From assembly GCF_024223415.1 (NCBI RefSeq), contig NZ_CP100503.1: a stretch of DNA of 64,000 nucleotides; one strand, written 5' to 3'. The DNA is from Escherichia coli (GTDB taxonomy: Bacteria > Pseudomonadota > Gammaproteobacteria > Enterobacterales > Enterobacteriaceae). The notes under the pieces were generated by a model, which saw only the letters and a program-made list of their open reading frames with translations, made no database searches and was not told the origin of the DNA. Shown piece by piece: positions 10,797 to 11,540 of this stretch. Made by a program: the position numbers and the translations under genes. How positions within the stretch are numbered: position 1 is the first letter of the stretch; each line of letters begins with the position of its first letter.

Positions 10797-11303
10797 TTGA
10801 GTATTTTCAATAAACACGCACACCAGGAACGTCCGTACATCGTCATAGTAGATATTGATGGGACGATATCAGAGGCAACGGAAGACAGGCTGCATTTACT
10901 TCCACCATCTGGCAAAGGTGCATTAACAGAGCACTGGAACGAGTTTAACCTTGCCTGTGACACTGATGCTCCCATCACTCCAGTTATTGATATGGTGCGC
11001 CAGTTGTCCAGCATTTACACGCTCTGGTTTGTAACCGGGCGCTGTGAGATAGCCAGGGATAAAACACGAGCCTGGTTGCGTAAGCACGTAACAAATGGGG
11101 CTGAGCCTTTGCTATCTATGCGTCCTGCCACCGATGACAGAAATGACGGCCCTGCAAAGATTGATCTCCTGAAGAAAATTGGTCTAAGTAAAATTGCGTT
11201 CGCGCTGGAAGATAAGATTGAAGTGGCGCGTGTTTTCAGGAGTCACGGCGTACTTACGTTAATGGTCAGGGAATATGAAAATGCGCTTCTTCATCAACAA
11301 TAA
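10797..11303 (+). CDS. HAD-superfamily hydrolase / phosphatase-like protein
   Basis: 168 aa; HAD motif I VDIDGT near N-terminus. Confidence 0.5.
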   Translation: MSIFNKHAHQERPYIVIVDIDGTISEATEDRLHLLPPSGKGALTEHWNEFNLACDTDAPITPVIDMVRQLSSIYTLWFVTGRCEIARDKTRAWLRKHVTNGAEPLLSMRPATDDRNDGPAKIDLLKKIGLSKIAFALEDKIEVARVFRSHGVLTLMVREYENALLHQQ

Positions 11304-11319
11304 TTGCTCTAATAAATCT
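11303..11319 (+). promoter_or_regulatory. C1 operator
   Basis: ATTGCTCTAATAAATCT. Confidence 0.6.
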
Positions 11320-11401
11320 TGATTTTTAAGTCAGGGAAAGTGAAAATAAAAACATGCCGCAAGGCGCGGCATGTATCCAATCAATCACAGGAGCTGAAAA
11401 T

Positions 11402-11476
11402 ATGAACACGGCATTCAAAATCATTATGGCCGGGCTGTTCTCTATCACTTTTGGCGGCATCGTCGCGCATGGGTAA
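11402..11476 (+). CDS. Small hydrophobic peptide (24 aa, MNTAFKIIMAGLFSITFGGIVAHG)
   Basis: ATG preceded by CAGGAG RBS, downstream of a C1 operator, followed by a terminator hairpin; below ORF-track size cutoff. Confidence 0.3.
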   Translation: MNTAFKIIMAGLFSITFGGIVAHG

Positions 11477-11510
11477 GGGGAGTATATTAGCCATTTGGAA
11501 CCCCACGGTC

Positions 11511-11540
11511 TCTTGCGGGTTTAATTAAGAACCCGCAAGA
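11511..11540 (+). terminator. Terminator-like hairpin
   Basis: TCTTGCGGGTT-TAATTAAG-AACCCGCAAGA inverted repeat. Confidence 0.45.

Follow-up and report, generated by a model that had tools for sequence, protein, structure and literature searches.

The pmgT-pmgU-pmgV operon of bacteriophage P1 is controlled by the C1 operator OpmgT, formerly Op88, which overlaps the predicted promoters P1pmgT and P2pmgT in the P1 annotation. In 1989, Citron, Velleman and Schuster reportedly described Op88 and the binding of C1 in P1. Among small hydrophobic peptides, KdpF, with 29 amino acids and encoded by the first gene of kdpFABC, is an operon-leading small single-pass membrane protein, and the enterobacterial type I toxins (Hok/Gef, Ldr, Ibs, TisB, ShoB, DinQ, ZorO) are likewise small and hydrophobic. 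The EcoR124I/II hsd cassette is carried by plasmid R124/3 and by IncF plasmids, and the GenBank record of P1 already notes identity to the downstream sequences of R124/3 and EcoDXXI. For P1-like phage-plasmids, a "variable region 8", extending from pmgT to humD, was described earlier (PMC9603915).

The window, a stretch of 64,000 nucleotides of Escherichia coli DNA (contig NZ_CP100503.1 of assembly GCF_024223415.1), is a P1-like phage-plasmid in which a convergent hsdRSM cassette takes the place of the operon that OpmgT controls in P1. Sequence matching the region is present in 894 of 5,426 complete E. coli genomes. As a whole, the locus is best explained as the Op88 module, followed by an orphaned small ORF and by a hairpin owned by the hsd cassette, at the left edge of the known hypervariable cargo region of P1-like phage-plasmids. 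We assign this combined reading a probability of about 0.6.

The Op88 module

The last conserved gene ahead of the module is pap (positions 10797–11303, plus strand; 3'-phosphatase/polynucleotide kinase-like), which is contained in the ORF list and annotated under this name in P1 and relatives. Its TAA stop codon overlaps the first base of the C1 operator at 11303–11319 (plus strand), ATTGCTCTAATAAATCT, which agrees with the asymmetric 17-bp C1 consensus ATTGCTCTAATAAATTT at 16 out of 17 bases. C1-operator-like sites with at most three mismatches occur 15 times in the window, compared with 0.32 expected by chance. Base for base, the same 17-mer is found at the same position in P1 as the protein_bind feature OpmgT/Op88, and in both molecules it overlaps the pap stop and abuts the −35 element of PpmgT. 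Judged by this identity, the site is Op88/OpmgT, a known C1 repressor site, and the operator proposed at 11303 in the initial annotation is borne out.

Transfer of coordinates from the P1 annotation places the predicted sigma-70 promoter P1pmgT at 11319–11347 on the plus strand. It consists of a −35 element TTGATT (11319–11324), a spacer of 17 nt and a −10 element GAAAAT (11342–11347), and scores 8 of 12 consensus matches in a relaxed promoter scan. Both hexamers are the same in P1, whereas the −10 hexamer of P2pmgT reads TAAAAC in P1 and TAAGTC in the window. From the promoter position, transcription is predicted to start at about 11353–11355, within the first bases of a hairpin at 11352–11374. 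Some haplotypes of the hsd class, which is defined below, have promoter hexamers that give an impression of improvement and not of decay, an observation that speaks against the combined reading.

The flanking stem-loops

The hairpin at 11352–11374, which was missed in the initial annotation, was detected by terminator scans and by folding. It is GC-rich, with 9–10 base pairs (6 GC pairs), a folding energy of −16 to −17 kcal/mol and z-scores of −4.2 to −4.9 relative to shuffled sequence. In the minus-strand reading it is, with its tail TTTTTATTTTC, a canonical intrinsic terminator, also called in P1, at which hsdR and other leftward transcripts are likely to stop. Transcribed from PpmgT in the plus direction, the same sequence would form a 5'-terminal stem-loop of the RNA. 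The hairpin is equally conserved in both classes of relatives.

These properties could indicate that the conserved function of the segment resides mainly on the minus strand. The terminator would then serve leftward transcripts, namely those of hsdR in the window and read-through from the lxr/humD side in P1, possibly including an antisense RNA of about 75–85 nt over the Shine-Dalgarno sequence and start codon, and the small ORF would be its target or a by-product. Besides the canonical terminator and its conservation in both classes, the most invariant 54 nt of the region (11375–11428) lie directly upstream of the terminator in the minus sense, and the strand gives sRNA-like Rfam alignments of sub-threshold score (GcvB with 20.3 bits, isrK with 11.2 bits). 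These scores fall far below the gathering thresholds of 42 and 50 bits, respectively, and the alignments reflect the terminator together with the anti-Shine-Dalgarno string. Moreover, no promoter scoring above 7–8 out of 12 was found on the minus strand, neither in the window nor in P1, and a strong Shine-Dalgarno sequence, an ATG and an intact frame would be left unexplained. We therefore regard a mainly minus-strand function of the segment as improbable. The C4 antisense RNA, of which the window holds three copies, was also considered as a regulator acting on the initiation region of the ORF and was rejected, the duplex energies being no better than those of random windows.

Downstream of the small ORF, hsdR is located on the minus strand at 11556–14672 and is thus convergent with it. 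The gene product is a type IC (EcoR124I/II) HsdR, matching HsdR of PDB entry 2w00 over the full length of 1038 residues with 2278 bits. According to the ORF list, hsdS and hsdM follow at 14794–17591 (minus strand), and the window matches the P1 backbone again from phd, near 17.7 kb. HsdR of the EcoR124I/II cassette on R124/3 and IncF plasmids is essentially identical to that of the window, and in the IncF plasmids the sequence up to the remnant of the small ORF accompanies hsdR in the same way. The two IncF plasmids inspected differ from the window in having an IS1 that interrupts the small ORF behind its third codon, and in lacking the operator, the promoter and the upstream hairpin.

Between hsdR and the small ORF, folding reveals a perfect inverted repeat of 11 bp with an 8-nt loop at 11511–11540, 16 nt downstream of the hsdR stop codon. 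The stem is real (−21 kcal/mol, z = −5.1), as had been claimed, and its assignment as a terminator of the small ORF does not hold. It is followed by AAAAACACG on the plus strand and by GACCGTGGGG on the minus strand, with no U-tract in either direction, and a terminator scan of the window did not call it on either strand. The repeat travels with hsdR in the IncF plasmid for which the sequence was read, is absent from P1 and is unique in the window. Since it lies beyond the end of P1 homology and inside the hsd cassette, it belongs to the cassette and, lacking a U-tract, is not the terminator of the small ORF.

Gene model and deletion allele

The Shine-Dalgarno sequence AGGAG is found at 11389–11393 on the plus strand, 8 nt ahead of the ATG at 11402. 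From here an ORF extends to 11476, ending with TAA at 11474–11476 and encoding 24 amino acids, MNTAFKIIMAGLFSITFGGIVAHG, so that ribosome binding site, start codon and the 24-codon frame are as initially described. On the two strands of the window taken together, there are only 18 cases of AGGAG followed by ATG at a distance of 5–9 nt, and ORFs of at least 70 amino acids start at 13 of them. The rarity of this combination at optimal spacing, and its occurrence mostly at real genes, support the coding capacity of the small ORF.

The ORF of the window is an allele of a conserved ORF of 28 codons, encoding MNTAFKIIMAAIYFWLFSITFGGIVAHG, which is found in P1, phi456, SJ46, about 180 IMG/VR loci and hundreds of P1-like plasmids. 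Among the 85 distinct haplotypes, representing about 180 loci, the ORF is open in all 85. The aligned haplotypes contain neither nonsense mutation nor frameshift in the 28-codon core, and the sole indel of the ORF comprises 12 nt, a multiple of three; indels of other lengths are located outside of it. AGGAG is invariant in every haplotype examined, the nearest variable sites of the UTR lying outside this motif. Conservation across P1-like genomes, for which the initial annotation had suggested a check, is thereby supported: Shine-Dalgarno sequence, ATG and frame are kept in all P1-like relatives examined, and the outcome named there as refuting, with neither a translation signal nor a frame kept in relatives, did not arise.

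The 12-nt indel is an in-frame deletion in the window. Alignment places it at 11432–11433 on the plus strand, where P1 has CGATCTATTTCT. As a result, a single G takes the place of the residues AIYFW, and 16 instead of 20 residues remain in the apolar run. The deletion allele was found in only one of the 894 matching E. coli genomes, on plasmid pCDF6_3 (NZ_CP158428.1), the nearest relative, which is 99.7% identical and in which PGAP annotates no CDS at the position of the small ORF.

Likewise, the P1 reference (NC_005856) has no CDS between pap and pmgT. Automated pipelines have called a protein of 44 amino acids at the same locus and in the same frame, namely WP_001312275.1 and WP_001426503.1 in RefSeq (hypothetical), J46_0098 in SJ46 ('membrane protein') and Orf75 in phi456; compared with these models, the window allele is four codons short. 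Unlike the 28-aa ORF, the 44-aa models have no Shine-Dalgarno sequence, and their ATG, inside the 11352–11374 hairpin, coincides with the predicted transcription start or precedes it. Of 91 loci, 23 have the N-terminal extension of 16 residues, encoded by the 48 nt upstream, disrupted by a stop codon (CCG TAA), a 2-nt insertion in the loop or a 4-nt deletion. With about a quarter of the relatives unable to encode the extension, 28 amino acids is the better model, and on this evidence the start of the pipeline protein is probably wrong. In databases, the small ORF is represented only by an automated "hypothetical" call, and it is absent from the P1 reference.

A junction at the stop codon

The small ORF is situated at the left border of "variable region 8". 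Alignments of relatives place a mosaic junction at 11475–11479. The block common to all relatives stops at ...GCGCATGGGTA, inside the stop codon of the small ORF, and beyond this point P1 and the hsd class have only TAAGGGG in common. Within this stop codon or directly at it (...GGGTA), the relatives pass into differing cargo modules, at least five or six in number; these include the pmgT type, the hsd cassette, an ead/Ea22 set, a DUF551 fusion and a variant starting with pmgU. Another module junction is located at codon 20 of the small ORF. Site-specific recombination as the origin of the junction was considered and rejected, since neither GCGCATGGGTA nor the arms of the 11511–11540 repeat recur at the far end of the hsd cassette or in the rest of the window.

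In P1, the small ORF heads the pmgT operon. Its TAA lies within the Shine-Dalgarno sequence of pmgT (TAAGGGGGATGCATG) and 6 nt ahead of the annotated pmgT ATG. This arrangement makes it probable that terminating ribosomes re-initiate at pmgT, resulting in translational coupling. Other co-oriented cargo genes similarly begin 4–33 nt past the stop codon of the small ORF or overlap it. PmgT and the alternative first cargo genes have no domains in Pfam.

The overlap of the stop codon with the pmgT Shine-Dalgarno sequence and the close spacing of the other cargo genes would also be expected if the peptide itself were of no importance. According to this explanation, the stretch reaching from the hairpin as far as the stop codon is conserved as a non-coding or peptide-indifferent leader, a 5' UTR and coupling region that brings ribosomes to the first cargo gene, and the amino acid sequence is incidental. 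The tolerance of the ORF towards changes at its C-terminus points in the same direction: some alleles have lost the stop codon and gained 9–37 residues, and others have a foreign C-terminus from codon 20 onwards. Against a leader stands the composition of the peptide, which is that of a canonical transmembrane helix. Furthermore, no significant mRNA structure is found past the 5' hairpin (z = −1.4 and −0.6), which also led us to reject an mRNA fold hiding the ribosome binding site.

Constraint in two classes of relatives

The segment that begins with the hairpin and ends with the ORF has a nucleotide diversity (pi) of 0.012–0.020. Since pi reaches 0.098 at the third positions of pap codons and 0.055 in the spacer of the promoter, the segment is constrained. 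Synonymous sites of codons 1–9 are invariant or nearly so (pi 0.0009), and pi of the 27-nt UTR is 0.012. The invariance of silent sites in codons 1–9 points to a constraint on the RNA or the initiation region there rather than on the protein, and together with the UTR values it fits a leader.

Haplotypes were further divided by what follows the ORF, either a co-oriented operon (pmgT type) or the convergent hsdR (hsd type). The canonical peptide is encoded by 49 of the 52 pmgT-type haplotypes, with pi values of 0.0027, 0.0014 and 0.0229 at the first, second and third codon positions, respectively, and a ratio pi(1+2)/pi(3) of 0.09; the corresponding ratio for pap in this class is 0.17. Among the 28 hsd-type haplotypes, 11 encode the canonical peptide, pi values are 0.036, 0.015 and 0.038, and the ratio rises to 0.68. 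Eight variant peptides occur in this class, including that of the deletion allele of the window. The diversity of pap is equal in both classes. When class labels were permuted, the observed difference was reached in none of 2000 shuffles for the small ORF and in 175 of 2000 for pap, with the qualification that the haplotypes are phylogenetically related and hence non-independent observations. The coding signature of the pmgT class rests largely on one synonymous site of intermediate frequency in codon 26. No difference between the classes is seen in raw counts of segregating sites, with three non-synonymous and three synonymous sites in the pmgT class and about nine and seven, respectively, in the hsd class.

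An ORF of 44 codons on the minus strand (11326–11460) has third codon positions coinciding with those of the plus-strand ORF and could mimic its codon signature. It was ruled out by alignment, because a TAG in the additional 12 nt of the common allele closes the frame.

From the class comparison, the protein sequence seems to be under constraint in relatives of the pmgT type, and this constraint seems relaxed in those of the hsd type. Disappearance of the constraint where no co-oriented gene follows is also what a leader would predict; however, codon positions 1 and 2 of the pmgT class are about 10-fold less diverse than the third, a pattern that pure coupling does not need. With this in view, a leader of incidental amino acid sequence appears rather unlikely to us. 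That the 28-aa ORF is translated and functional in P1-type genomes is, in our estimate, more likely than not.

Nature of the peptide

The 28-aa allele has an apolar stretch of 20 residues, with a Kyte-Doolittle value of 2.10 and a summed Hessa dG of −0.88, each over 19 residues. It is long enough to span a bilayer, which takes about 19–20 apolar residues. With 16 apolar residues and a summed Hessa dG of +2.30 over 19 residues, the window allele is too short. The description of the product as a hydrophobic single-transmembrane peptide consequently fits the common allele and not the allele to which it had been applied. Some other alleles have a charged substitution within the helix (G22D, G23D), which speaks against the combined reading.

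A word-indexed search and an exhaustive HMMER search, the latter over 1.84 billion proteins, yielded no relatives outside P1-like elements, all matches being at least 92% identical; with a family limited to such elements, the power of comparative analysis is low. The peptide has no match in Pfam or NCBIfam at E ≤10 and nothing significant among PDB sequences, and its only match in PHROGs, to a PHROG of unknown function, is non-significant (E = 0.16). A full-text literature search with the peptide string retrieved no paper. Published P1 transcriptomics and virion proteomics mention neither pmgT nor the small ORF.

The initial annotation had proposed a small toxin or a holin-like factor, and a C1-controlled product of this kind, either type I-like or acting in lysis, would damage the membrane upon loss of C1. 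A short hydrophobic single-helix peptide under a C1-controlled promoter would be suitable for this purpose, and the opposite-strand terminator adjoining the ribosome binding site, shared with type I toxins, is reminiscent of cis-antisense antitoxins. The locus differs from type I toxins in having a repressor-controlled promoter and a position within an operon, and in lacking both a match to their families and a recognisable antisense promoter. Apart from the non-significant PHROG, no toxin or holin family was matched in the three family databases, and distant relatives are missing. The C-terminus (...IVAHG) is without the charged tail, and the ORF lies in an early operon, its neighbours being pap and either pmgT or hsdR, outside the lysis cassette. 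Many elements carry the ORF in a freely varied, IS1-truncated or fused form. For the peptide of the window in particular, the proposal is not supported either, given its rare deletion allele with just 16 apolar residues and its membership of a class in which the ORF shows no coding-type constraint. A toxin or holin is accordingly very improbable. Because four codons of the helix are lost and amino-acid-changing sites vary as freely as silent ones in its class, a decaying remnant is the most likely reading of the window allele, ahead of an active toxin or holin, and we give this reading about even odds.

Another likeness is found in KdpF: the 28-aa ORF encodes a peptide of about the same size with one hydrophobic helix, and it is a first cistron tightly abutting the next gene. 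The two peptides have no sequence similarity and, unlike the case of KdpF, no protein encoded downstream in P1 is clearly membrane-embedded, the best candidate being the C-terminus of PmgU with a Kyte-Doolittle value of 1.74. The 28-aa ORF is best filed with the small single-pass membrane proteins and its counterpart in the window as a degraded allele.

Proposed mechanism

By homology to P1, C1 bound to Op88 would keep the predicted sigma-70 promoter PpmgT off in the lysogen. Upon inactivation of C1, an mRNA would start at about 11353, carrying a 5' stem-loop of −16 kcal/mol, and the strong Shine-Dalgarno sequence and ATG would drive translation of a small single-helix hydrophobic peptide. In P1-type elements this would be the 28-aa peptide with one apolar helix of 20 residues, encoded by the first cistron of the pmgT operon, and termination on the pmgT Shine-Dalgarno sequence would couple its translation into the operon. 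In the window, the opposite-facing EcoR124-type hsdRSM has replaced the remaining operon, leaving the small ORF an orphan. Nothing co-oriented follows and, the stem at 11511–11540 having no U-tract, a plus-strand transcript would continue into hsdR in antisense direction. Leftward hsdR transcripts, in turn, would probably end at 11352–11374 after antisense passage through the small ORF.

A more far-reaching interpretation would combine a genuine early-lytic membrane peptide, encoded by the 28-aa ORF, with re-use of the Op88 promoter as a restriction switch by hsd-type elements, which, with their convergent cassette of the EcoR124 type, make up about a third of the P1-like elements. On induction, the promoter would fire through the terminator-less stem at 11511–11540, antisense to the 3' end of hsdR, and in the lysogen the hsdR 3' UTR ending at 11352–11374 would be antisense to the peptide mRNA. 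We consider this interpretation improbable; if true, a repressor-gated switch based on convergent transcription would tie prophage induction to restriction activity.

For the window itself, the composite reading given at the outset leaves a known operator, a damaged allele of the ORF and a 'terminator' that is the property of the neighbouring restriction cassette. P1 is a model phage, yet its reference annotation shows no gene from Op88 to pmgT. If real, the 28-aa peptide would be the first product of a C1-repressed early operon, and its ORF would show with nucleotide precision where, on the left, a cargo hot-spot for restriction systems and other accessory genes begins.

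The left border of variable region 8, the previously described cargo region of P1-like phage-plasmids that extends from pmgT to humD, is exact to the nucleotide at window positions 11465–11479, as seen in loci L001, L075, L091, L094, L062, L074 and L090. The point after ...GCGCATGGGTA, within the stop codon of the small ORF (11402–11476, plus strand), is the junction for cargo modules of at least five unrelated kinds, and codon 20 of this ORF represents a sixth cargo junction. A repeated motif suggestive of a site-specific recombination site was not found at this border.

The closest relative of the window is the 96.9-kb plasmid pCDF6_3 (NZ_CP158428.1) from an E. 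coli isolate of human urine, which is 99.7% identical over positions 11250–11600; among complete E. coli genome records, it alone carries the same 12-nt deletion of the small ORF. Between Op88, the C1 operator upstream of this ORF, and the ORF itself, a canonical intrinsic terminator is located on the minus strand (11352–11374) and is kept in all relatives. Its counterpart in P1 (NC_005856) lies at about 84343–84365, where the overlapping annotated features do not include a minus-strand terminator.

Two further short ORFs of 28 and 32 aa, each preceded by a perfect AGGAG at a distance of 6–8 nt, are situated on the plus strand at 45652 and 59024; the former is contained in a 108-aa ORF. A sok antitoxin (CssrC) is matched in Rfam at 45779–45953 (plus strand; 91 bits, above the gathering score), with no obvious Hok-like ORF among the nearby listed ORFs.

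The C4 antisense RNA occurs three times in the window, within segments 23023–24600 (plus strand; copy at 23124, preceded by an isrK match), 31400–32200 (minus strand) and 33550–35200 (plus strand). Each copy adjoins an ORF of about 354–371 aa, and c4-a1b1 target elements are present with the two copies other than that at 23124. In combination with perfect C1 operators at 32181 (minus strand) and 33548 (plus strand), this arrangement suggests three immI-like antirepressor modules, compared with one in P1.

About 280 plasmid records match the small ORF in its 3' portion only, and in both inspected plasmids (L004 and L005, both IncF) IS1 is positioned directly upstream of the matching segment. 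As read from the sequence of L004 (NZ_CP028576.1, 3930–4180), the small ORF is cut by IS1 behind its third codon, and next to the truncated ORF comes an EcoR124-type hsdR; by this arrangement, the hsd cassette of this plasmid looks P1-derived.
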